IMG/VR virus record: IMGVR_UViG_3300023173_000014
Location: 6,791-70,790 of that record
Direction: 5' to 3' (one strand)
DNA length: 64,000 nucleotides
Origin: a virus
Taxonomy: Duplodnaviria > Caudoviricetes
Part shown: positions 3,167 through 56,890 of the stretch, in pieces
Position numbering within the stretch: the stretch's first letter is position 1
Layout of the letters: each line of letters opens with the position of its first letter
The notes under the pieces: generated by a model
Databases searched by the model: none
Told to the model about the DNA's origin: nothing
Seen by the model: only the letters and a program-made list of their open reading frames with translations
Made by a program: the position numbers and the translations under genes

Positions 3167-3441
3167 TAGTACTGTCCAATGCAGTAAGTGAAGGTTGCAC
3201 CCGTTGCGACAGGTACTAACTGAATTTCGGTGATCAACGGAGTGTTGAAAAGTCCACCTTGGTTTGCGGAGAGATCCCCATCTTCTAGTACAACGAATTC
3301 GTCCATACCCAAACACTTAACGCGAATTACGGCGTCAACAGAACAAGCAACAGATAAGCCACTGTAGTTGGGTGAGAGAGGTTTGGTTAAGTCACCTGTG
3401 TTTGTGCCTTGTTTTTGAGTTGTAAGGTTAATGTGGGCCAT
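3166..3441 (-). CDS. small beta-rich hypothetical protein, first gene of the 986-3441 cassette
   Basis: CAGGAG RBS; coupled to the next gene. Confidence 0.75.
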   Translation of the reverse strand: MAHINLTTQKQGTNTGDLTKPLSPNYSGLSVACSVDAVIRVKCLGMDEFVVLEDGDLSANQGGLFNTPLITEIQLVPVATGATFTYCIGQY

Positions 3442-3448
3442 AACAAAG

Positions 3449-3476
3449 CTCCTGTAGTTGAATTACAGGTACTTTA
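3449..3476 (-). promoter_or_regulatory. SD-occluding hairpin with an upstream -10-like TAAAGT
   Basis: Minus strand reads TAAAGT-A-CCTGTA-ATTCAAC-TACAGG-AG; the stem covers the CAGG of the SD. Confidence 0.45.
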
Positions 3477-3510
3477 ATGAACTAAGAAAAGATTATTGAG
3501 AAAAGGAAGG

Positions 3511-3526
3511 AGGCTCTTACGAGCCT
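3511..3526. terminator. intrinsic terminator
   Basis: AGGCTC-TTAC-GAGCCT followed by TTT on + and by a pyrimidine tract on -. Confidence 0.7.
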
Positions 3527-3576
3527 TTTAGGGAGTGCTTACGACAACAGATGTTGCGTTACACGTTGGAAAGATA

Positions 3577-3710
3577 TGTTTAGTAGTTGACTCTCTCCTT
3601 GGAGCAGGAAAATGGCTAAAACCTATAAAGAAGAAAGCCAACTACTAAACAGTCTTAAAGGGAGCTTGGCCGCTCATCAACTGCGGAGCAAGGCAGGCCT
3701 GAAAGACTGT
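3577..3710. ncRNA. putative structured RNA (two large stem-loops)
   Basis: Perfect 13-bp inverted repeat 3577-3589/3639-3651, plus an 8-bp inverted repeat 3649-3656/3703-3710 enclosing CCGC/GCGG and CTTG/CAAG stems. Confidence 0.4.
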
Positions 3711-3731
3711 ATTGAAAGAGTACTCCTATGA
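3612..3731 (+). CDS. putative 39-aa peptide MAKTYKEESQLLNSLKGSLAAHQLRSKAGLKDCIERVLL
   Basis: Hand-translated; GGAGCAGGA upstream of ATG; below the ORF-track size cutoff. Confidence 0.4.
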   Translation: MAKTYKEESQLLNSLKGSLAAHQLRSKAGLKDCIERVLL

Positions 3732-3974
3732 GACAGAAGTACAGGAATTTTTGCGTATTGGTGAATATCTCGTTGTCACGATTCTCCGGTTTACGACTTA
3801 CACCGGTATTACCTCCAAACCATTACCCTCCAATGTACCGAGCCTTTGGCGGTAGTCATGTACTCTAAGGTCTTTTTACGGCAGTTCACTGTAGTGATTG
3901 CTTACAGAGCAATAGGCTATCTCTTGCAGCATTCTACATTACCTGCCGGGAGTATATTCACGCACCGGGACTCT

Positions 3975-4157
3975 TTAATCAGCTATGACAGCTCCGATGC
4001 TGATATAGTTGTTTGCCCAATCAGAAGCGTACTGTTCAATGAGCTTGTCTCGTTCTTCTTCGTTACTACTTTCCCACTCTTCCTCGTCAATATCGATGAT
4101 GTCTTCTTGACGTGCGTTAGCGAATCCGATCGAGAGGGATACTTTAAGCTGGGGCAT
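3975..4157 (-). CDS. 60-aa acidic phage protein
   Basis: Start reassigned to MPQLKV (CAGGAGG RBS); DIDEEEW...DWANNYI pattern. Confidence 0.75.
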   Translation of the reverse strand: MPQLKVSLSIGFANARQEDIIDIDEEEWESSNEEERDKLIEQYASDWANNYISIGAVIAD

Positions 4158-4399
4158 GAAACCTCCTGTTGAGTGATTGAGGTGGCTGGGAGTGAAGCCA
4201 GCATACAAGCCCTTACCCTTAACCGGTGTAGGTAAGAGTTCAGACGGTATTCTCTAGGTCCGCGTCTTTCGGAACTCATTTCATGTACTTCGTATGTGAT
4301 CTGCATACAAAAGCCCAGGTCACCATCCTGGATTCACCTCAAAACTGGTTTAAATTCTTATTGGCTGATGCTTCTCTGTCTCGTGGTCTTTGAGCAATT

Positions 4400-4506
4400 C
4401 TGTGTACCTAAGCAGGGAATCGAACCCTGAACCTCTACTAACCGCTGCGGCCGCCATGTTGACCGACTTCTGCGGGGGTTTAAGGGGCCATGTCGTACCC
4501 TCAGAA
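4400..4506 (-). ncRNA. degenerate tRNA-like element 2 (canonical T-arm only)
   Basis: CAGGG-TTCGATT-CCCTG at 4429-4413; weak 6-bp acceptor-like pairing TCTGAG/CTTAGG; no CCA. Confidence 0.3.
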
Positions 4507-4530: not shown

Positions 4531-4635
4531 TGGATGGTAACGGAGGAATCGAACCTCAGAATCAGTATGCGCCTACTGTTCACGCCCTAAAGCAACCAGC
4601 TAAAGCATTCCAGGACTGCTGACGTGACGTTACCA
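4531..4635 (-). ncRNA. 105-nt tRNA-like RNA with CCA end and a long hairpin in place of the D-arm
   Basis: Perfect acceptor TGGTAAC(G)/(C)GTTACCA, T73, CCA; T-arm GAGG-TTCGATT-CCTC; CAGTA-GGCGCA-TACTG arm; about 47-nt irregular hairpin. Confidence 0.65.
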
Positions 4636-4665
4636 ATATACTGCCCTACTTTATCGAGAGCATAA

Positions 4666-4688
4666 AAAACCCGGAGGGTTTCCGGGTT
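4666..4688 (-). terminator. intrinsic terminator (can alternatively fold as AAACCC-GGA-GGGTTT)
   Basis: Minus strand AACCCGGA-AACCC-TCCGGGTT-TTTT. Confidence 0.75.
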
Positions 4689-4719: not shown

Positions 4720-4860
4720 CTAACCATATTCCATCTGTTCTGGGCGGTTGAGCAGCATACTGTTTTTCTCAAAAACAGGACCGAACAAGACAGATGGAAA
4801 GGTTAAGCATGTCTCCGCCTGGTTGCGTACAAATGCAACTTCGATGAGGAACTTGAACAT
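4720..4860 (-). CDS. 46-aa hypothetical protein MFKFLIEVAF...
   Basis: Hand-translated; AAGGAG RBS. Confidence 0.55.
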   Translation of the reverse strand: MFKFLIEVAFVRNQAETCLTFPSVLFGPVFEKNSMLLNRPEQMEYG

Positions 4861-5864: not shown

Positions 5865-6035
5865 AACTGCCTCCAAAGTTATCCACATTACTGCGGGAAA
5901 GATGTTGTTTGTTTTGTATACAGGAGAGAGAAGAAAAGTTCGTAATAACTGACGTAAGTTGTTGATTCTTGGTAGGGCGTTTCAGGAGGTAGTATTACAG
6001 AACTTTCTTCTGGGACCCGCATGGTTACGGGATCA

Positions 6036-6089
6036 AGCAGCGGATTGAAAATCCGCGTGTCGGTGGTTCGATTCCGCCTCTGGGCACCA
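6036..6089 (+). other. attP core: 3' 54 nt of a tRNA-Phe(GAA) gene
   Basis: AGCAGCGGATTGAAAATCCGCGTGTCGGTGGTTCGATTCCGCCTCTGGGCACCA contains anticodon arm (GAA), T-arm, acceptor 3' strand and CCA. The 5' half is absent. It lies 126 bp past the integrase stop. Confidence 0.9.
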
Positions 6090-6215: not shown

Positions 6216-7322
6216 TTACTTAGTCGCCTTCCCTTTCTCAAGTTTCAGTCGATAGCGTTCTGCCATCTCCCGCGTCTTGTGTTTCAAGTCTTTACCATCT
6301 GTACCTGCCTTCTTCTTCAAGTCGTGATTCCAGAAGTTCTTCACGCCCGTAACACGCATCATGTTGTAACGTGCTTTGTTGATGGCAGACTGCGTAATGC
6401 GTTGACCTCGTGTGTTCTGTACGATCGGAGTCTGGGAAGGTTCCCTTCGATCACCTGGTTTGTGCAGAGCGGTGGCGAAATCGATAGCAAACTGCAAGTC
6501 TTCTGAAATTTCGACCAACTCTCCCCGAGAACCCTTTCCTCGAATACAGCGTAGGTACTTCTTACCGTCTTCGTACAGGATGTCTGACATGTTGAGGTTC
6601 CAGACCTCATGGACACGTAACCCACACAGGTAAGCGATCTGCCAGAACGGGTAGACCCATTTCTGCCGGCTTTGGAGTGCGGCTTGGAGTAGCGCATCGT
6701 AATCTACGTCTTCGGTATAGACCTGACGAATGTTCTCAGGGAACTTCATAGTCTGTTCTGCGGGATTACCCTGCATCCCTTCAACGTACTGGGTAACCCA
6801 CTTGAAGTAAGTGATAAGGCAGCTACGGTGCCGGTTAGCGACGATCGGTTTGCCTTCTGTTTCGATGACTTTACCGTTGGCTTTGACAACTTTCTGCGGA
6901 GTGTTCCAGTAATCCAGGTACTTACGTACATGGGTTGGACGTACTTCTTGTGGGTACATGGCACCGAAGACGTGACGTAGCCCATTGTGAGTCGCTCGAC
7001 TGTTCAGCTTGTCAGGATCTACGACAATGTTGATGTAAGTCTCGTACTGCTTGTCCTTTAACCGTGCAAACTCAGGGGAAGCCAGGTATTGATCAAACCA
7101 GTAACTGTTATTCTTCGGTTGGAGTTGTTCTGCAAGATGGTCCTCGTAAGCCTTGTAGAGAGCCGCTTTCACAGCAGCATCTTCGATGATCTTCCCGTTG
7201 ACCTTCTTAAACTTAAGTAAGGTCGTAGCTTTCGCTTTCAAAGGGCGATAAACATAACCAGTTTTATCGCGGTACACGCGTTCCGGCATCCACCGGTCAG
7301 CAGGTTTACGTGGACGTCCCAT
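6216..7322 (-). CDS. int: tyrosine recombinase / phage integrase
   Basis: MGRPRK N-terminus; GLR (Arg I), KG (Lys), HDLK box, H and ERY (Tyr). Confidence 0.93.
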   Translation of the reverse strand: MGRPRKPADRWMPERVYRDKTGYVYRPLKAKATTLLKFKKVNGKIIEDAAVKAALYKAYEDHLAEQLQPKNNSYWFDQYLASPEFARLKDKQYETYINIVVDPDKLNSRATHNGLRHVFGAMYPQEVRPTHVRKYLDYWNTPQKVVKANGKVIETEGKPIVANRHRSCLITYFKWVTQYVEGMQGNPAEQTMKFPENIRQVYTEDVDYDALLQAALQSRQKWVYPFWQIAYLCGLRVHEVWNLNMSDILYEDGKKYLRCIRGKGSRGELVEISEDLQFAIDFATALHKPGDRREPSQTPIVQNTRGQRITQSAINKARYNMMRVTGVKNFWNHDLKKKAGTDGKDLKHKTREMAERYRLKLEKGKATK

Positions 7323-46654: not shown

Positions 46655-49600
46655 ATGGAACCATCCATCTACCAAAAACTTTCCGGGGCTACGTCCGAGA
46701 AAGCATTGAACGTGGAAGAAGCACGTACACGCAAACAACAAGCGTTGGATCGTATCAGCGCAAGCGTCGCTTACCGTAACTCATGGGAAGGTCAGGTTGC
46801 AGGTCTGGGAACGAATAGCGACCTCGCCCGTTCTTTCTCCTCCGGGGTTGTTGGAGGTACCGGCGCCATTGTTGATGGTGTTGCCGGATTAACAGGTAGT
46901 GAAGCCTTAGAAAACACAGGTGATTGGTTTGCTGAAGGTGCTCAAAATATCCGTCAATCACGTTCAGGTGAGTATCAGGATAACGTAACCAAGGCTACTC
47001 CTACTGGTGACCTGTTCTCCCCTAGTACCTGGGATCTTGGTGACGGTAACTTGGAAGGTCTTGGTGGATTACTGGCAGAGACCACCGGTCAGATGGCTCC
47101 TCAATTGGCTGCTGGTGCTGTAACCGGTGGTGTAGGTGCCGCTGTTGTAGGAGGGGCGCAAGCCGCAGGCGGAGCGTCCCGTCAACAATGGGAATACGTT
47201 GATGCGCTTTCTCACGATGAGTTGATGAACGAGTCTGGTTTGTACCGTGATCTGGTGGTTACCGGATCTTCACCTGAAGACGCCCGTAAAGAGGTTCGAG
47301 AAACTGCCGCCCGTGCCGCAGGTTTACCTGCTGCTGTTATTGGCGGTGCTGGTGGTGCGGCAACTCATTACATTTTGTCTGGTTTACCTTCCGCATTGTC
47401 TAAGGCTTTACCGGACACGTTACCAGGGAAAGTAGCGTCTCACGCAAGTACTGCTGGTATTAGTGCGGTAGAAGAAGGGATACAAGAAGCTGCCGAAGCA
47501 GTAACCTCCAAGAGCGTAGCTAACGCTGCCATTGATAGCGATCAACAAATCGATGAAGGTGTATTTACCGATCTGGTGTTGGGTGCAGGTACTGGCGGTG
47601 CAATTTCTGCTGGTAAGAGTAGCCTCAAAACCATTTCTGCAACGGCAGATTTGATCGATAAGGGGCTTGCCAAAACCAACCGTGCTGAAGCTACGCCTGA
47701 AGAGGTGGCAACACTCTCGGACCCTACCAGTGACGCATACGATCCCGTACGTGTTGCGCGTACTGCGTACAAAAAGTTGAAAGAAGATCCAGAGTCTGAT
47801 GGCGCAGCTCAGATTGATTCCTTGGTTTCCGAACAACAAAGCCTGATTGAAAATATCAAACTGCGTGGTATGGCCTCTACCGAGGAAGGACGTGCACAAC
47901 TCCAGGCTGTTGTTGAACGTGCAGAAGCTCGCTTGGTAGGCGAAACAGATACTGAAGAACGTTCTGCCCTTGAGAACACCCGCGATACATTTAACGCCCT
48001 TCTACAAGAAGGTGAGGATGCGGATACAGAGGTTATCCGTGCTGAGCTTGGGAAAGCTAACACTACCCTAAGTAAACTGGAGCGTTTCCGCGATGCTGCT
48101 CAAACCAACCAAGATGTAGGGGAGGATCTGCTATCTGAGTCTGGTACAGACACTTCAGAGACGCGTGTCAATCGTACTGTTGTACGTGCAATGAATAACC
48201 CTGATGCCTACACGCCAGAGCAACTGTCATCTCTTGTTACTCAGTCAGGAAACGGCCTGACCTCAAACCAACGCGCTTACCTTCGTGCTTTAGGTACTTC
48301 ACAGGAGCGTTTGAACACCACTGGTGATAATGCGCCGTCGTTGGCGAACACGCAGAAAGGGGTCTACTACGGTACCGATGGTTTCAAAGGCCTGAAACAG
48401 TACCGTAAAGATATGGCTACTGCCGTCCGTGGCGGTAATGTGGGTGCCATTAATCGAGAACTTCAAGGTATTCGTTTATTCCGTCAAAGCCATACCGAAA
48501 AAGCATCTGCAGTGCAGGCTGCCTATGCTGATGCACAACAAACAGGTTCACCGGTCCAGGTGGTACGTACTTTGGCAGGTAATTGGGAACCAAGTACAGA
48601 GACCCTTACTGACGCTGCTTTACGTGAGAATGGCGGCCTGTTGATCTCTGCTCGCTCTGGTTCTTTGGTATCCGCCATCCAGGAAGAAGCTGCGACTATC
48701 GGTGTCATCGAAGCAGAATTGAAAGCCTTAAAAGACGTGCGTAATCCCGTTACCGAAGAACCTACTAATTTTGGTGAAATTAGTACTTCGGAGACTTCAT
48801 CCTCTGAAACACAGACTGTACCTGCTTCGGAGCCTGCTGAAGGGTTAGTAGATACTGCAGAAAGTACGCCTGAACCTGAATCTGTACCCAATGTACAAGA
48901 GCTGATTGAAGAGGCGCCTACCGATGAGACGAATGACACAGAGGCAGAGGCAGAAGAAAGCACAGAACAGGAAGCGCCAGCAGAGCCTGAAGAAGTAGAA
49001 GCAGTTAAATTGGAAGCAGGAGCATTGCAGTTCCCTGCAACACCTTCTACCAAAGACGGGACCGAGGTTACAACTAACTTACTTCATAAGTACGGGAAAC
49101 AGTCAGCAGGTTCTTCGGAGGCTCCCAAGGCGTTAGTCACTATCAAAAACCTGGCTTCTTATGTGAAAGCAGAAGGTGCAAGTGTCTTGCAGGACCTTAC
49201 CGGTAAAGTTCTGACTGATACCGATCTCAGTGCGTTAAGTACCTTGTTAGAGGATGCAAATGTACTGGGGGATACCGTTCAAGTGTTGTTCCGTGAAAAG
49301 AAGGAAGGTTTCCAACACCAGGACTGGCTAGGGTACTTCAGTGAAGCCGGTGAACTTCCGGAGAATGTAACGACGGCTATCGGTATCGCTGCGATCGACT
49401 GGGCGGGTTCTAACGTCTCTTCACTTGGTTTCAATACTGATGAAGACATTCGTCGCATTCTTTCCATGGATAAGAGTGAGCAAATTCCGTCACATGCACG
49501 CAACACGTTACGTAAAGCCGGGGCACGTCGTGAATTTGTCGTACGCGACATTGGCCGTTCTGCTGTACGGATGTTGGGCATCTCACTGACGAATGCACCA

Positions 49601-52600
49601 AAGAACTATCGCAGCAATCTTGAGACTGCGTTGGGGATGTACGGTGTCATGGCACTACAAGAACAAGGCGTTCTTGGGCAGCAACGTGTAACGGGAATGC
49701 GCAGTTTGGTCACAGACACTCCTGATCCTGATGATAAGACTAATGCGACCTTTCTGCCGCCGGTACTGGAAGGTAATCGGCTCCCTTCTCAAAGCGCAGC
49801 ACTCGTGCGTGAAACCAAAGCAGTACGTAATCTCCTTCCGGTCGTGTTCGGAAGTGAGTCTGCTGTGGTAGGGCCAGTACTGGAGTCGCCTGAGAAGTGG
49901 AGCCAGAAACGGATTAACAACAGTTTACAGGGCGTACCTGCTGCTTTGGCTGAGGCACAAGAGGCGGCGTTTAAACGTCCCTGGCACATTCGCTCGAATG
50001 GTCCCGCTTCGTCTTTCCTGGCGCTATCTCGGGAAGCACAGGAGCGTATTGTTGGTATTCAGGCTGTGACTCCTGCAATGCACGTCAATGAACAAGAGCG
50101 TATCGAGTCTAAGAATGAGGGTTTACGTCGTGAACTGAACCACTTCCAAGACTTCATCGATACAGCTCCAGATGGGTTAAGTCAGCGATTCTGGTTACGC
50201 CCTGTCGTCTGGAGTGTCCAGCGTGCAGGCTTACAGTCACAACAGATAAACCCGCAGACCAGCAAAATCCATCGTCACCTGGTTTCCTTGAACGACTGGC
50301 GTACGCCGGTATCTACTGATCGTCGTAGCAAGAGCTTTCGTCGTTTCTCTCTGGCTCTGGCAGTAGGTCTCGGTATTGATGTGGATAAACAACCTCTTGA
50401 CCACACCTACAAGCAGATGCAGGACAAATGGGTTAAGTATGCGGAAGCTATTGATGTACTGATCCCAACATTGGACGGTGAGGTACTGACGTCTGAGCAG
50501 GAAGCGATTGTCGCAGAAGCCGTGGCAGATGCTGGTGAAGCAATGCACTCATTCGATGCCTTGGTGAACATGGCGCAATGGGAAAAAGCGAAACGTACAG
50601 GACAGAAAGAGTTCACCACAGACATCATGTTTGAAGTCGACGGTGTGACTAACGGACCTATGCTCACGCACTTATTCATGGGCGTAGAAAATACGGCCGA
50701 GCCTCTACAGAACCTTGTTGAACGGGGCGGTTTCTTCAAACGTGGTAGTGAGTTCAAGAGTTTTGGTGATTTCAAAAACCAGAAGAAGAATGACCTCTAC
50801 GAGACCTTGGCCACGACGTTACACCATGTCCTTAATGAGAAGGAACAGTCACCTGCAGGTCAGGCTATTCAGAGCCTGGTAGGTAATATCTTCGATGAAG
50901 AGACAGGTACCGCAGCGAAGGCCGGCCGTAATCTCGTGAAAACCCCGGTCACTGCATCCACCTTCGGTTCATCGATCGGAAAGGTCCTGAGCAGTATGGC
51001 GGACGAGGTACTGACCAAAGTAGAACGCCAGATTGAGGCTTTGGCTGCCGAGGGTGCAGATGCTTCTGAGTTAATCAGTAAAGTGAACACAGTCCTCCAA
51101 GCGGGCGGAGCCACGCAGAACGAAATGCTGCCGCCTACTACTGCAGTAGCATTACTCAAACACCGCTGGACACCAAAACAAGTTCAGGCTTTCAACAAAG
51201 GGTATGAAGGTACCTATGGACAGGCGGTAAAAGAAGCCATCGAACGTCAGTCTGATGGGTTCCTGGAAAACCGTAAAACCATGAACAACATTGCCAATAC
51301 TTCTTACGAAGCATTCAAGGTGGTGTATGAAGCAGTGCGTGAAGATTTTAAGAAAGAGTTACTGCGTAAGGGACGTGTTAAGTACCGGACCAACAATAAA
51401 GGCGAGCGTATTGCGATTGCTGATCTGACTCCACAACAAGAGAAAGAATTGGATACTCGCTTGAAGAACGCACTCCCTATTGTCCATACCTACTTCTCGA
51501 AATTAGAGGGTGTACTGCAGAACGGTCTTGGGGTTTATAAGCAAAAGAATGTTCCCGGTAGTACCGGTAATGGTGAAGAGTACTTACAAGAAACAAACGT
51601 TGCTCGTGCTGTAGATGTTACAGGCGACAAGCCGTATAAATCCATGTCAATTCAAGGACTTATCAACGTACTGGCAAGTCCAGGTGTAGGTACTTTGATC
51701 AAGCAGGTGCACTCGTCTGACAGTGCCATCTCAGCGTCTGTGTATGGAAAACTTCCAACACTGAATCTTCACGATGCGAACGGGATGGCGATAAACCAAA
51801 TTGAAGAAGTTGCTGAAGCGATGAATAAAGCAACCTTCGATGTCCTGGCTAATTACTCCATCCCAATGGAGAACGTCAGTAACCTAACGCGTGTTCTGAA
51901 AGGGACCACAGAACTACAGCAACGTTACCCGTCTGTTGCGAATGCCTTGGCGTCTGCAAACCTGGCTTCCCTCTTCCAAGGTAATTTAGAGAAGATGGTC
52001 GGTAAGGGTGCCGGCATGGATGCGTACCTGCGTATGGCCAAAGGAAATCCAATCAACGCGTACCTTATGGCAGCTCATCAGGCAGCCACACAAATGGAAC
52101 GGAACAAACTCCATACGTTGAAGAACGTTGGTCAAGTCAATCAGTATTCCTTCGAGGGCGGTCATTACCAGATCACGAAACAAGACCGTGACTTGCTGGA
52201 CACCCGACTGACTGAACTGGAGGCTTTACCTAACCCAGGTCAAACACTGGATACTCAATCCTTGGTTTCAGGGGAAGTCGCACCGCGTACAGTTACTGCA
52301 GAACCAGAGGAGCTGATCCCGTTAGTACGTGAGGCTCTCCGTAATGACCGAGGTAATCGTGGCTTACGTCAGGCACTGAAGCACCTTGTACGTGGTGACA
52401 CTACTGAAGAGGTAATGAAGAACCTGCCAGAGGCATCAGCTAAGGAAGTGACTGATCTTATTCTGAGCACAGAAGATAACCAGGCAGTGGCGAAAGACAA
52501 GTTCATGCTTACGAACCAAGCACGGGTTGTACTGCTGGCAGAACAGCTTCAAGGCCTGTACCCACAATGGGACGCTGACCTGACTTCCTTTGTTCGTTAC

Positions 52601-55600
52601 GTGAAAGAGGAGTCGAACACACCAAATGACGCTCTGGATCGTATGTTCTCTGGAGACGTGTTCCGTAAAACGGCCTTCACCGACTTCTTATCCCGTGCGC
52701 ATCAAGCATTTACTCCTACACCTTGGGGACCGTTAGGTGAGCCTGTTCAGAGCAGTGACCCCGAGTTGGTTGCTTACTTAAGTGAAGGTAAACGTACGTC
52801 AGGTGAGGTGTTAAAGCATTTGATTCGTACGTTACAAGCAGGCCCTTCCAAAGATACTCAAGAAGGTAAGTACTACGTGGAAATGGCCAAGCAGCTCTTA
52901 CGTGTGGCGGATCGTGACGTCCCAGTGAAACTGGTTACTCCGCGTACGAAGGAGGTAGAAGGAACCTACGACTACCCAGTTACCGCTGCTGCACTCTATG
53001 TGAAAGGTAAGTCCGAGCAGATCCTGGTTAAAAGTCCTGAGTTCAAATACTCCAACGTGACACCAGAAGCCTTGATACATGAGATGGTCCATGCAACCAC
53101 GACGGTAGAGATCCAGAACCCAGGTTCTGCACGGAGTAAAGCAGCCGTTGAACAGTTGGAGGCAGTTCTGGACGTTGTGAAAGGACATCTGGCTACTACA
53201 CCAGAGCAAGCAAAACGGTTTGCACCTGCGGTAACGAACGTAGACGAGTTATTGGCTTGGGGTTTAACCAACCGCGACTTTCAGAAGTATTTATCAGGTA
53301 TAACCTTTAAAACCGGGAAGAAGCCCGGAGGGCTTGTCTCTGCCCTTCGCTCCTTCCTCTCTGCTGTGGCTGATCTTTTAGGTATTAAGGACAGGAATAA
53401 CGCCTTAGCGGCCGTCGTCATTAATGGTGCTGAGTTGATGCAGTCTCGGGAACAGGACGCAGATGCACGTACAGAACGCGTAGTACGAAGCATGGACGTA
53501 GGTGATGGAACTTCTATCCGCGACTGGACAGCTAAAGAGGTACTCTCCGCTTTGAATGGTCCCGACGAACCGCGTTTAACCTCTCTGATGGATTCCATTG
53601 TAGAGAAGGTGCATGGGCCGGCAGGTACTGTGAAAAACGAAGTGGATTCAATGGCAGCGTACAATCCAAGAGACGTGTATCTATCTGCTTTGGTAGGCGG
53701 GAAGATGCCTTTCTACTCTCAAGTACGTAACCATTTCCGTCTGAGTGAGAAAGAGGCATTTGTTTTGGAGCAGGTGCAACTGTCTGTGGACGCTGCCTTG
53801 GAACCTACCTCCCTTCTCTACCGGGAAATGCGGAAACTACATAACGAAGCCAAGAAGGTACTTAAACCCTCAGACTTCCATCAAGGTGACTGGGCGCGAG
53901 CAAATACTCGAGAGAAAGCGCAAGCAGAGGCGCAATACAACTTCCTCTTTGATGTACGACCGGCAGCAGGAGGGCGAAGTAATTACCTGAGTGAGTTTGC
54001 TGCCTTGGTTTCCGTATACGCTCCTCTACGTGATCGGTTGAATCAACTGCAGGGAACTGACCTGGATACCCCTCAGTCTCTTGTAGAGCGTGTGGAAAAC
54101 TGGATCTCCCGTCTACTCGATCTTCTTGCAGGTAAACTGTACGGAGTTACCTCAGCAGGGTCCTTAGATAAGCGCATGGAAAGTTTGCTTCAGGGCCTGG
54201 GCCAGGTGGAGGCGAACCGTAAGATGACACTGGAGCATACCCGTGCTAACTCTCTCCAGGATCGTCTCGAAATGTTTAACACCGCTACTGATCGTTTCCG
54301 TGGGATGGTTGGAGCGTTAGGGGAACGCTTGCAAAATAACAGCTCAAGTTATGTAGGCGCTTTGGGGACCGTGCTTACTCTGAATGCGGATGATCGTATC
54401 GGTGCTTGGGAAACTCACGCGCAAAAAGTCCGTAACCGGATGTTTGAAGGGCGTCAGGGCTTGATTGCAGGGCTGGTCACTGAGATCAAGGGTGAGACTG
54501 AAGCCAACACTCAATCCTACGCCTTGCTCCGTGAAGCCAATAAAGTAGAGAAAGCCGTCGTACAGGAGACAGAGAATGTACGAAGACTAGCGCGTGAAAG
54601 TTTCGACGATGCCGGGTCGTACCTGACAGAGGAAGATACCTACGCTCTTACCGCGTCTCTAATGGAAACAGACCTGGTTTCTACGTTGGGTGAATACACT
54701 CTCAATGATTGGGAGAACATGATCCTGGACGATGATGCACTCGAGGCAGAGATCACACGACTGAGTGAACAAGTACGCACTCATTTTGGTGTGTACGGTG
54801 ATTACGTTGTTCGCGGTGCTTTAGATCTTGGTTTCTACCAGGCGACAGGGATCAACCGTAACCCTAACCTGGCACTTAATGTACATACCCTCCTCTCTCT
54901 GAAAGGTACGACAGAAGCTGGAAACATCGCAGCAGACCTGATTGATGAGCACGCGGGTGTTGTTGATGTCTTGGCTTCCTTAATGGCAGTACGCAGTACT
55001 TCTTACGAACACCGGGCAAAGACGTATGCCGTCATGCAACGCGAGAATGCGCGTGGTGATCAGAGCGGTGTACTGACTTTGCTACGGTTGCAGGAGAAGT
55101 TCAAAGAAGAATCCATGGAGAAGCTCTTCGGAGGTAATCCTCACTTGATGCGTAAAGGCTTCATTAAAGAGATTTTCAATCACCATAACGACGTGGTGGT
55201 GGCCTCTGAAACAGAAGGCCGTGACTTAGAGGCACTGGGTTATCGGAAAGCACATGAAGTACAAAGTGATCCAGCCGATCCTGACATCAACAGCAAGCAT
55301 ATTTACGTTGCTGATGGTGCGGGTTTACGTCGCCGTGAAACAGGTATCGTGAATTTCGTTAACAAGAAAGCACGAGGCTCATCGATCGATAGCGTTGATG
55401 TAACGGAAATCACCGAACAGAAACAGTCATTAGTTAAAGGCTTGTTTTCAATGCAAGGTGGGTACAACCCTGAACAGAACGGTGCACAGTACTTAGTACC
55501 TCTTCGTAATGACGCCGGGGATATTGTCGCCTATCGCTACACCATGACTACACATTCAAAAGATACGTTGATGGAACGTCATAACGCTTTTGATGATGTG

Positions 55601-56890
55601 CTTGGAGGTATGGCCGGCAACCTACTGAACAAGACGGAAACCAAAGAGACCAATACCAAGGCCGTGCAGTTACTTAAAGACCTCTACACGTCTGGTGATT
55701 ATGATCCTGAAGACTTTGTTCTGGTTCATGCTGATGCTGATGATCCCGAGATCAAAGAGACCTTCCGACTGATGTCTACCGATATGCGCAATGCCATTCG
55801 CCAGGTGTGGGGTGGTGACGAGATATACGTCCCTGTGGAGCTGTACGATCTTTTCTTTGGTTATCGGCGTAAGAGCCTGTCTGGGGTCTTCGATAAGCCA
55901 GAGGAAGCACGTAATGCGCTGGAACAGGTATTGGTAAATACGTTAGAAGCGTTCTTCGGTAAAGAAGCAGCCCTGAAATTGACGCGTGCCGAGAACATGT
56001 GGATGGAGGCTATCAACGTACTGAAGGACATCTTGGTTATTAAGAACCTGTTTACTCTCGTCGGTAACATTGTCAGTAACTTCTCGGTACTGGCTATGCA
56101 CGGGGTTTCATTGAAGGAGCAAGTTAAGAACCATAAGATCGCTACACAGTCGTTAGTGGACTATCAGCGTGACTCAGGTGAACTGCTACGACTTCAGAAA
56201 CTTAAGGATGCAGGGATTAATACCGGAAGAGGTCTCGAGCAAGACATTACACGCCTAGAGGATGCGATTGCACGTAATCCTATCAAGGTGATGGTAGATG
56301 CCGGTTTGGTGCACACGATCGTAGAAGACATCGAGAACGACGATGATCGGTTCAGTTATAAAACACGTTTTACGAATTGGGTGGAAGATAAAGCAGAGAA
56401 AGTGCCGGACGGCTTAAGGGAGGTAGGGAAACACCTGCTAATGACGCATGATACGCCTCAGTACAAACTGTTGTACCGAGCTACAAGCACCAGTGATTTC
56501 GCAGCACGCTTTGTGCTTTTGCGTCACTTAATGCAGCGTTCAAGTAACCCGCTTACTCAAGAAGAAGCGTTACGTCGTGTGGATTCGGAGTTCGTTAACT
56601 ACGATATTCCTACACACAGTACGATGGATTACTTTAACCGTATGGGGTTCGCTCTCTTTACCAAATACTACTTACGGATTCAGAAAGTGCTATTCACGTT
56701 GTACCGTGAACAACCTCTACGATCATTGCTGGTTTCCTTATTGGGGAACATGATTGATGGGGTGCAGACCCTTTCGGATTCTGCGTTCTGGGGTCGGTTT
56801 GGTAATCTTACCTCATCAGGGGTCCTGGAGCTTCCAGGGGCTGTCGACGAGATCGTACCGTTGAAGGTACTCACTTCTTTGACAGATTAA
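46655..56890 (+). CDS. virion-encapsidated RNA polymerase (N4 gp50-like)
   Basis: 3411 aa; FEVDGVTNGP (motif A), R.LVK.PV....FG (motif B), LHDA (motif C); no Cys seen by eye; HEMVH in the C-terminal region. Confidence 0.97.
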   Translation: MEPSIYQKLSGATSEKALNVEEARTRKQQALDRISASVAYRNSWEGQVAGLGTNSDLARSFSSGVVGGTGAIVDGVAGLTGSEALENTGDWFAEGAQNIRQSRSGEYQDNVTKATPTGDLFSPSTWDLGDGNLEGLGGLLAETTGQMAPQLAAGAVTGGVGAAVVGGAQAAGGASRQQWEYVDALSHDELMNESGLYRDLVVTGSSPEDARKEVRETAARAAGLPAAVIGGAGGAATHYILSGLPSALSKALPDTLPGKVASHASTAGISAVEEGIQEAAEAVTSKSVANAAIDSDQQIDEGVFTDLVLGAGTGGAISAGKSSLKTISATADLIDKGLAKTNRAEATPEEVATLSDPTSDAYDPVRVARTAYKKLKEDPESDGAAQIDSLVSEQQSLIENIKLRGMASTEEGRAQLQAVVERAEARLVGETDTEERSALENTRDTFNALLQEGEDADTEVIRAELGKANTTLSKLERFRDAAQTNQDVGEDLLSESGTDTSETRVNRTVVRAMNNPDAYTPEQLSSLVTQSGNGLTSNQRAYLRALGTSQERLNTTGDNAPSLANTQKGVYYGTDGFKGLKQYRKDMATAVRGGNVGAINRELQGIRLFRQSHTEKASAVQAAYADAQQTGSPVQVVRTLAGNWEPSTETLTDAALRENGGLLISARSGSLVSAIQEEAATIGVIEAELKALKDVRNPVTEEPTNFGEISTSETSSSETQTVPASEPAEGLVDTAESTPEPESVPNVQELIEEAPTDETNDTEAEAEESTEQEAPAEPEEVEAVKLEAGALQFPATPSTKDGTEVTTNLLHKYGKQSAGSSEAPKALVTIKNLASYVKAEGASVLQDLTGKVLTDTDLSALSTLLEDANVLGDTVQVLFREKKEGFQHQDWLGYFSEAGELPENVTTAIGIAAIDWAGSNVSSLGFNTDEDIRRILSMDKSEQIPSHARNTLRKAGARREFVVRDIGRSAVRMLGISLTNAPKNYRSNLETALGMYGVMALQEQGVLGQQRVTGMRSLVTDTPDPDDKTNATFLPPVLEGNRLPSQSAALVRETKAVRNLLPVVFGSESAVVGPVLESPEKWSQKRINNSLQGVPAALAEAQEAAFKRPWHIRSNGPASSFLALSREAQERIVGIQAVTPAMHVNEQERIESKNEGLRRELNHFQDFIDTAPDGLSQRFWLRPVVWSVQRAGLQSQQINPQTSKIHRHLVSLNDWRTPVSTDRRSKSFRRFSLALAVGLGIDVDKQPLDHTYKQMQDKWVKYAEAIDVLIPTLDGEVLTSEQEAIVAEAVADAGEAMHSFDALVNMAQWEKAKRTGQKEFTTDIMFEVDGVTNGPMLTHLFMGVENTAEPLQNLVERGGFFKRGSEFKSFGDFKNQKKNDLYETLATTLHHVLNEKEQSPAGQAIQSLVGNIFDEETGTAAKAGRNLVKTPVTASTFGSSIGKVLSSMADEVLTKVERQIEALAAEGADASELISKVNTVLQAGGATQNEMLPPTTAVALLKHRWTPKQVQAFNKGYEGTYGQAVKEAIERQSDGFLENRKTMNNIANTSYEAFKVVYEAVREDFKKELLRKGRVKYRTNNKGERIAIADLTPQQEKELDTRLKNALPIVHTYFSKLEGVLQNGLGVYKQKNVPGSTGNGEEYLQETNVARAVDVTGDKPYKSMSIQGLINVLASPGVGTLIKQVHSSDSAISASVYGKLPTLNLHDANGMAINQIEEVAEAMNKATFDVLANYSIPMENVSNLTRVLKGTTELQQRYPSVANALASANLASLFQGNLEKMVGKGAGMDAYLRMAKGNPINAYLMAAHQAATQMERNKLHTLKNVGQVNQYSFEGGHYQITKQDRDLLDTRLTELEALPNPGQTLDTQSLVSGEVAPRTVTAEPEELIPLVREALRNDRGNRGLRQALKHLVRGDTTEEVMKNLPEASAKEVTDLILSTEDNQAVAKDKFMLTNQARVVLLAEQLQGLYPQWDADLTSFVRYVKEESNTPNDALDRMFSGDVFRKTAFTDFLSRAHQAFTPTPWGPLGEPVQSSDPELVAYLSEGKRTSGEVLKHLIRTLQAGPSKDTQEGKYYVEMAKQLLRVADRDVPVKLVTPRTKEVEGTYDYPVTAAALYVKGKSEQILVKSPEFKYSNVTPEALIHEMVHATTTVEIQNPGSARSKAAVEQLEAVLDVVKGHLATTPEQAKRFAPAVTNVDELLAWGLTNRDFQKYLSGITFKTGKKPGGLVSALRSFLSAVADLLGIKDRNNALAAVVINGAELMQSREQDADARTERVVRSMDVGDGTSIRDWTAKEVLSALNGPDEPRLTSLMDSIVEKVHGPAGTVKNEVDSMAAYNPRDVYLSALVGGKMPFYSQVRNHFRLSEKEAFVLEQVQLSVDAALEPTSLLYREMRKLHNEAKKVLKPSDFHQGDWARANTREKAQAEAQYNFLFDVRPAAGGRSNYLSEFAALVSVYAPLRDRLNQLQGTDLDTPQSLVERVENWISRLLDLLAGKLYGVTSAGSLDKRMESLLQGLGQVEANRKMTLEHTRANSLQDRLEMFNTATDRFRGMVGALGERLQNNSSSYVGALGTVLTLNADDRIGAWETHAQKVRNRMFEGRQGLIAGLVTEIKGETEANTQSYALLREANKVEKAVVQETENVRRLARESFDDAGSYLTEEDTYALTASLMETDLVSTLGEYTLNDWENMILDDDALEAEITRLSEQVRTHFGVYGDYVVRGALDLGFYQATGINRNPNLALNVHTLLSLKGTTEAGNIAADLIDEHAGVVDVLASLMAVRSTSYEHRAKTYAVMQRENARGDQSGVLTLLRLQEKFKEESMEKLFGGNPHLMRKGFIKEIFNHHNDVVVASETEGRDLEALGYRKAHEVQSDPADPDINSKHIYVADGAGLRRRETGIVNFVNKKARGSSIDSVDVTEITEQKQSLVKGLFSMQGGYNPEQNGAQYLVPLRNDAGDIVAYRYTMTTHSKDTLMERHNAFDDVLGGMAGNLLNKTETKETNTKAVQLLKDLYTSGDYDPEDFVLVHADADDPEIKETFRLMSTDMRNAIRQVWGGDEIYVPVELYDLFFGYRRKSLSGVFDKPEEARNALEQVLVNTLEAFFGKEAALKLTRAENMWMEAINVLKDILVIKNLFTLVGNIVSNFSVLAMHGVSLKEQVKNHKIATQSLVDYQRDSGELLRLQKLKDAGINTGRGLEQDITRLEDAIARNPIKVMVDAGLVHTIVEDIENDDDRFSYKTRFTNWVEDKAEKVPDGLREVGKHLLMTHDTPQYKLLYRATSTSDFAARFVLLRHLMQRSSNPLTQEEALRRVDSEFVNYDIPTHSTMDYFNRMGFALFTKYYLRIQKVLFTLYREQPLRSLLVSLLGNMIDGVQTLSDSAFWGRFGNLTSSGVLELPGAVDEIVPLKVLTSLTD

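Follow-up and report, generated by a model that had tools for sequence, protein, structure and literature searches.

Genes and features of the locus

The DNA analysed here, a stretch of 64,000 nucleotides referred to as the window, comprises bases 6791–70790 of a 70,790-bp IMG/VR virus record that is rated complete. The virus is an N4-like phage (Schitoviridae). It carries N4-type genes for an RNA polymerase II subunit, a DNA polymerase, a primase, a portal, a major capsid protein and a terminase, and a 3,411-aa open reading frame (46655–56890) that corresponds, by place and size alone, to the virion RNA polymerase of N4. The major capsid protein shares no more than 60–70 % identity with any relative, cultured or uncultured.

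This N4-like phage is temperate. A tyrosine integrase gene adjoins a sequence that ARAGORN and Rfam both call as a full tRNA-Phe, yet the 5′ acceptor strand of this tRNA is mismatched. The 3′ part of the sequence corresponds to attP/tRNA-Phe cores found in phages of Burkholderia and Rhodovulum, and we therefore identify it as the attachment site of the phage. Lysogeny genes are already known from uncultured N4-like genomes (PMC10654107). Two related N4-like IMG/VR records (G002 and G012) are of the provirus class. tRNA genes are absent from 10 of 12 related N4-like records; the remaining two carry Gln/Tyr/Arg or Met genes.

At a distance of 1.4 kb from the integrase and attP (tRNA-Phe), a variable, orphan-rich gene island contains two tRNA-like sequences, which we call element 1 and element 2. 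The features around them are as follows.

6216–7322, minus strand: tyrosine integrase gene, adjoining attP
6015–6089, plus strand: attP, the 3′ part of tRNA-Phe and the sole tRNA call in the window
4720–4860, minus strand: 46-aa orphan ORF with a strong ribosome-binding site, upstream of element 1
4668–4688, minus strand: GC-rich hairpin with a T-run, intrinsic-terminator-like, at the end of the 46-aa gene and 28–33 nt upstream of element 1
4531–4635, minus strand: element 1, 105 nt, a non-decoding sequence of clear tRNA derivation as judged from sequence and fold, without ARAGORN or Rfam call
4404–4473, minus strand: element 2, a heavily decayed tRNA-like piece about 60 nt downstream of element 1
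4314–4332, minus strand: weak terminator-like hairpin (hairpin prediction) that closes the non-coding unit
3975–4157, minus strand: 60-aa DUF7167 gene (E 2.7e-20), downstream of element 1

Both elements lie within a non-coding gap of about 510–563 nt, the largest in the 10-kb locus. An initial annotation of this DNA had placed element 1 in a non-coding gap just after a terminator. This description is borne out by the terminator-like hairpin at the end of the 46-aa gene and by a gene caller, which finds no gene across the 563-nt gap on an identical contig. Directly downstream of the DUF7167 gene, about 530 nt (3441–3975) form another large gap of the island, which contains only a 39-aa ORF on the plus strand.

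Element 2 has retained an intact T-arm (CAGGG-TTCGATT-CCCTG), but its anticodon stem is broken, it has no CCA, and no convincing partner strand for an acceptor stem could be found. Rfam gives it a mascRNA-like match of 17.2 bits, and blastn against 50,697 phage records returned generic T-arm matches only. The plain decay of element 2 shows that tRNA sequences are degenerating at this locus.

The island was acquired horizontally and recently. Pfam and PHROG searches with the flanking 46-aa, 113-aa and 132-aa ORFs gave no match, and the 518-aa and 132-aa neighbour proteins have no relatives in IMG/VR. Among 5.8 billion proteins, the 468/518-aa protein matched itself alone, and the 60-aa DUF7167 protein found a single distant homologue (47 %) at word-based sensitivity. 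The language-model neighbours of the 468-aa orphan protein (P0001; 1760–3166, minus strand) are mostly phage lectins of the Laminin_G_3/ConA-like type (score 0.96). Beyond the 468-aa gene lies a cassette on the opposite strand with a Phage_Tail_Tip protein. The island may be a host-range module.

Fold and decoding capacity of element 1

On the minus strand, element 1 can be divided into the following parts.

4628–4635, minus strand: 5′ acceptor strand TGGTAACG, pairing with 4535–4542
4580–4627, minus strand: expanded D-region of 48 nt, drawable as a three-part hairpin (z −0.70)
4587–4613, minus strand: internal direct repeat CTGGAATGCTTTAG / CTGGTTGCTTTAG, read from the sequence
4563–4578, minus strand: 5-bp arm CAGTA-GGCGCA-TACTG with a 6-nt loop at the position of the anticodon arm (pair probability 0.98)
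4543–4557, minus strand: T-arm GAGG-TTCGATT-CCTC, recognised from its sequence and from the T-loop motif count
4531–4542, minus strand: 3′ acceptor strand CGTTACCA, discriminator T and encoded CCA

The strands TGGTAACG and CGTTACCA form eight of eight Watson–Crick pairs, followed by T and CCA. In this respect, and for the T-arm and the arm next to it, our reading from 4635 to 4531 is an exact match to the initial annotation. The acceptor/T branch can be drawn as an 8/4 stack, or as a 7/5 stack, in which case U49·C65 is a mismatch. Position 8 is a G instead of U8, and U(−1), U73 and the encoded CCA are present. The minimum-energy fold calculated with ViennaRNA (−33.3 kcal/mol) is the structure that had been drawn initially. 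All 17 Watson–Crick pairs of the three canonical helices are intact, with ensemble probabilities of 0.96 for the acceptor stem, 0.98 for the anticodon-like stem and 0.99 for the T stem. Compared with shuffled sequences, the fold of the whole element has a z-score of −1.57.

Three copies of the T-loop motif GGTTCGAWTCC are present in the window (in element 1, in element 2 at 4416–4426, and in attP) against an expectation of 0.03, and none of 100 shuffles reaches this number. The 140 nt upstream of the 3′ acceptor strand would contain a perfect complement to it by chance with a probability of about 0.002 for 8 nt and about 0.01 for 7 nt. Because the motif count exceeds expectation to this extent (3 against 0.03) and because the 8-bp acceptor stem has a chance probability of P ≈ 0.002, element 1 is, to judge from its sequence, clearly derived from a tRNA. 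These two observations also confirm the tRNA shape that had been noticed at the acceptor, the T-arm and the CCA end, and they leave an origin by chance as the least credible of all the explanations considered here.

The D-region requires a more cautious reading. The giant hairpin that had been described at this position is indeed the minimum-energy fold, but it is no better than the folds of shuffled sequences (−13.9 kcal/mol, z −0.70, equalled by 39 of 200 shuffles), and a repeat lies inside it. The inner helices have pair probabilities of 0.72 and, for the innermost helix at the tip, 0.29. This region is about 30 nt longer than in a tRNA. The score of its internal repeat is reached by 20 of 2000 shuffles (about 1 %, in a post hoc test); the repeat is too short for a call by Tandem Repeats Finder, and its two copies have already diverged. 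The second copy holds TGGTTGC (4598–4592), a second, degenerate version of the 5′ acceptor strand. With the setting -ps80, ARAGORN uses this strand to propose a 68-nt "tRNA-?(cg)" that starts at 4598 and has a 3-bp D-stem, but the ensemble probability of this alternative acceptor is essentially zero when it competes with the perfect upstream strand. A hairpin at the level of shuffled sequences, a direct repeat and a degenerate extra copy of the acceptor strand all suggest that the D-region arose by slippage or duplication and was not built as a module. The region also cautions that a striking minimum-energy hairpin can equal chance.

Element 1 cannot decode. ARAGORN makes no call under default settings, a 2.8-kb Rfam search reports no tRNA (RF00005), tRNA-Sec or tmRNA match to element 1 even at E ≤ 10, and an exhaustive scan for hairpins finds, apart from the T-loop, no 7-nt loop with U33 and R37 in any register. 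On these grounds we can agree with the earlier view that this is not a decoding tRNA. The canonical features that remain are the 12-bp acceptor/T branch, the consensus T-loop, the discriminator and CCA, and those that are missing include U8 and a normal-sized D-arm with G18 and G19. The arm at the anticodon position closes on the 6-nt loop GGCGCA, which has no U33. The GCA in this loop and U73 had initially been read as a hint of tRNA-Cys identity. This reading has to be abandoned: U1–A72 and the acceptor stem match phage tRNA-Asn, and GCA lies outside the position that an anticodon takes in a 7-nt loop. In intron mode, ARAGORN suggests a "tRNA-Leu(tag)" with a 31-nt intron, which we rejected on account of two mismatches in the acceptor stem and a start outside element 1. 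A one- or two-piece tmRNA was likewise rejected, since the tmRNA search of ARAGORN came back empty, also at a relaxed threshold, and the tmRNA models of Rfam gave no match.

Relatives and ancestry

A model built from element 1 (R1) scores its own sequence with 129.9 bits and matches itself only. It found no match in 25 related N4-like records and only ordinary tRNAs in the tRNA regions of two relatives. Exact and degenerate scans of IMG/VR, with either the 3′ end or the 6-nt loop plus T-arm as the pattern, returned nothing except two chance hits inside an ORF. The 24-nt 3′ end, searched without constraint on the T-stem, does not occur in any of 185,579 GTDB species genomes; in JGI metagenomes the 3′ end matched 18 sequences, but 16 of these do not resemble tRNAs. 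In the gap, the sole other contig that we fetched with this phage (Logan assembly L003) has 100 % identity and therefore gives no variation. At the level of exact-pattern scans and these 25 records, on which the absence of homologues rests, element 1 is unique to this phage and without relative in any collection searched. The initial annotation had suggested that it serves as a substrate or decoy for tRNA-handling proteins; we found no evidence for such a role, and a homologue is absent from all collections searched.

Phage RNAs of comparable appearance have been described. T4 species 1 RNA (rnaC, NC_000866 70908–71046) is a stable RNA of unknown function that is encoded within the T4 tRNA cluster. 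Both rnaC and element 1 are oversized tRNA-like phage RNAs without a usable anticodon arm and without an Rfam family, and they share a predicted topology, consisting of a closing stem, a long irregular hairpin, a hairpin with a 6-nt loop, and a canonical T-arm near the 3′ strand. They differ in several respects. rnaC is strongly structured (z −4.57, compared to −1.57 for element 1) and has GUA instead of CCA at its annotated end. It lies amid eight working tRNA genes, whereas element 1 has a decayed fragment as its neighbour, and its phage possesses no working tRNA. A model built from the single T4 sequence (R2) scores element 1 with 4.8 bits (E 1.3), and we therefore rejected membership in a T4 species 1 RNA family; conversely, rnaC reaches no higher score with R1 than ordinary tRNAs do. 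The best Rfam match of rnaC itself (L106 1109–1247) is tRNA-Sec, with 17.5 bits, and in its predicted fold a 10-bp hairpin, capped by a 6-nt loop, comes a single base ahead of the T-arm.

Irregular 8/4 tRNAs and allo-tRNAs have been reported from bacteria and from phages, among them phages that infect alpha-proteobacteria, and some of them have extra loops, are pseudogenes or appear not to take part in translation (Mukai et al. 2017, PMC5389517). Element 1 has the 8/4 split of the 12-bp branch, U73 and the canonical T-loop in common with them, but it contains no recognisable counterpart to the 7-nt anticodon loop, the long variable arm or the long-stem/tetraloop D-arm of allo-tRNAs (PMC5389517). 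It consists of three serial hairpins only, none of which has a 7-nt anticodon loop. That element 1 could be an irregular tRNA of this 8/4 type with an extra loop, still charged or decoding, is hard to credit. The 8/4 branch, U73 and CCA would suit such a molecule, and tRNAs of this kind do exist, also in phages (PMC5389517). Against it stand the missing U33/R37 loop, the lack of separate long variable and anticodon arms, G8 in place of U8, and the silence of the Rfam tRNA and tRNA-Sec models at E ≤ 10.

A third comparison is offered by tRNA-Other of Bacillus cereus, a pseudo-tRNA that flanks a genomic island and is reported to have a regulatory rather than a translational role (PMC3399842). 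Both are non-decoding tRNA-like genes beside an integration hot spot, but tRNA-Other is chromosomal, conserved within its lineage and associated with experimental phenotypes, whereas element 1 is a phage sequence without a homologue in the collections searched.

The two true tRNAs among the 18 JGI hits are both tRNA-Asn(GUU) genes in phage-like arrays, one on a contig with 27 tRNAs and one on a contig with 3.

L099, 419–495: phage tRNA-Asn(GUU) gene, sharing its first 9 nt with element 1
L093, 4280–4354: phage tRNA-Asn(GUU) gene in a metagenomic tRNA array

These genes have an acceptor stem that is identical or nearly so to that of element 1 (UGGUAAC/GUUACCA, with U1–A72), a similar T-arm and an encoded CCA. 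A U1–A72 pair is typical of bacterial tRNA-Asn and tRNA-Gln. They are of normal size (75–77 nt) and have the loop CUGUUAA and G73, whereas element 1 has the 6-nt loop GGCGCA, U73 and an additional 30 nt in the D-region. The ancestor of element 1 was probably of tRNA-Asn type, as far as the acceptor sequence tells. Since a comparison with 34 tRNAs does not single out Asn outside the acceptor stem, we regard this ancestry as a lead and not as proof. If it is true, element 1 has lost both main identity elements for AsnRS, the GUU anticodon and G73. The larger of the two arrays (L093, 414–5241) places 27 tRNA genes in a single row on a 9.4-kb metagenome contig, probably from a large phage, and its tRNA-Asn and tRNA-Gln genes begin with U1.

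Origin and possible roles of element 1

Element 1 is a real tRNA-derived, non-decoding element that falls within the known phage pseudo-tRNAs and tRNA-like RNAs. We consider it what remains of a tRNA gene carried by a phage, probably one for tRNA-Asn, and no longer able to decode, and we assign a probability of about 0.5 to this interpretation. A small piece of the tRNA array of another phage would have been captured and would now be decaying. Transcription of the gap, if any, would occur by read-through of the upstream terminator. If a transcript is made, RNase P should still be able to cut it, since the 12-bp minihelix is intact and both U(−1) and CCA are present, and this cut would release a CCA-ended RNA of about 105 nt that has no decoding role and no demonstrated selected function. 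Descent by decay is suggested by the tRNA origin combined with the inability to decode, the partly duplicated D-region, the acceptor stem shared with two phage tRNA-Asn(GUU) genes, the condition of element 2, the absence of a homologue, the orphan proteins nearby, the scarcity of tRNA genes among relatives and the lack of a sigma-70-like promoter. Several observations point in the opposite direction. The 17 of 17 flawless pairs, the consensus T-loop and CCA are intact even though the copies of the internal repeat have diverged, and neutral decay might be expected to damage stems, as it did in element 2. The gap is large for an otherwise compact phage genome, and T4 species 1 RNA shows that a tRNA-like RNA of this layout, although oversized, can be a real and stable phage product.

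These same observations are the basis of the main, if tentative, alternative, according to which element 1 is a working non-decoding tRNA mimic, released by RNase P as a stable CCA-ended RNA whose 8/4 "top half" (the acceptor/T minihelix) binds or occupies a tRNA-handling factor. Such a factor could be a host defence or toxin that acts on acceptor ends, a synthetase, the CCA-adding enzyme or EF-Tu; the RNA could also be a regulator, a role that has been suggested for T4 species 1 RNA and for B. cereus tRNA-Other. Intact helices, T-loop, U(−1), U73 and CCA would all be expected of such a molecule, which would moreover have a terminator-bracketed non-coding unit of its own and the topology of rnaC. 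There are also precedents: irregular 8/4 U73 tRNAs, some of them non-translating, in bacteria and alpha-proteobacterial phages (PMC5389517), a functional pseudo-tRNA beside a genomic island (PMC3399842), and phage tRNAs as known tools of counter-defence (PMC10264068, PMC11464382, PMC11555353). On the other hand, conservation of any kind is absent in the collections searched, the rnaC model returns 4.8 bits (E 1.3), the D-region has no significant structure, a promoter was not found, the companion element has decayed, and element 1 offers no anticodon loop, the target of most known tRNA nucleases. A more specific version, in which a stable 105-nt CCA-ended 8/4 mimic is the N4-like counterpart of T4 species 1 RNA and titrates or misleads a host factor that acts at the acceptor end of tRNAs, seems doubtful. 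If it is true, the target should act on acceptor ends of the Asn/Gln type (U1–A72), as for example a defence or toxin tRNase might, and the location in a cargo island by attP could allow expression in lysogens. Since no relative was detected in any collection searched, a decaying or repurposed relic is more likely than a proven new tRNA mimic.

Two further explanations assign a role to the locus rather than to a mature RNA. Element 1 may be an RNA-processing handle, at which RNase P would cut to separate or stabilise the mRNAs of the 46-aa gene and the DUF7167 gene in the manner of tRNA punctuation. A minihelix with CCA is a minimal RNase P substrate and would suffice for this purpose, element 1 is located between two genes on the same strand, and it has no detectable promoter of its own. 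This explanation is nevertheless unlikely, as a strong terminator already ends the upstream gene 28–33 nt before element 1, the downstream gene is about 370 nt away, past a second terminator-like hairpin, and the arrangement is not conserved in relatives. Far less likely still is a fossil or secondary attachment site, that is, the 3′ part of a host tRNA gene left by an earlier integration specificity. The integrase and the tRNA-Phe attP are only 1.4 kb away, and 3′ fragments of tRNAs are typical att cores. Yet the 24-nt 3′ end occurs in 0 of the 185,579 species genomes, and the 5′ strands of the acceptor and of the anticodon-like stem are present and perfectly complementary, although an att fragment has no need of them.

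To our knowledge, non-decoding phage look-alikes of tRNAs have been recognised since T4 species 1 RNA and are still unexplained. Defences that cut tRNAs are now known to be opposed by phage tRNAs. As the probable relic of a captured tRNA gene, element 1 is of value as an example of how such a gene can be remodelled when part of its D-region is duplicated, its anticodon loop lost and its discriminator altered. If element 1 is instead a mimic, its 8/4 minihelix would extend the non-decoding look-alikes to a new lineage, represented by a temperate N4-like phage, and provide a testable case.

No sigma-70-like promoter was detected in the stretch from the upstream terminator to element 1. The hairpin at about 4667–4688 can adopt two folds, either a 9-bp terminator stem or AAACCC-GGA-GGGTTT, which is preceded by AAA on the template (plus) strand. 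We take the latter to resemble the promoters of the N4 virion RNA polymerase, which presumably consist of a stem with a GGA triloop. If this is a true N4-type hairpin promoter, transcription would start near 4663, and element 1 would be transcribed with a 28-nt leader.
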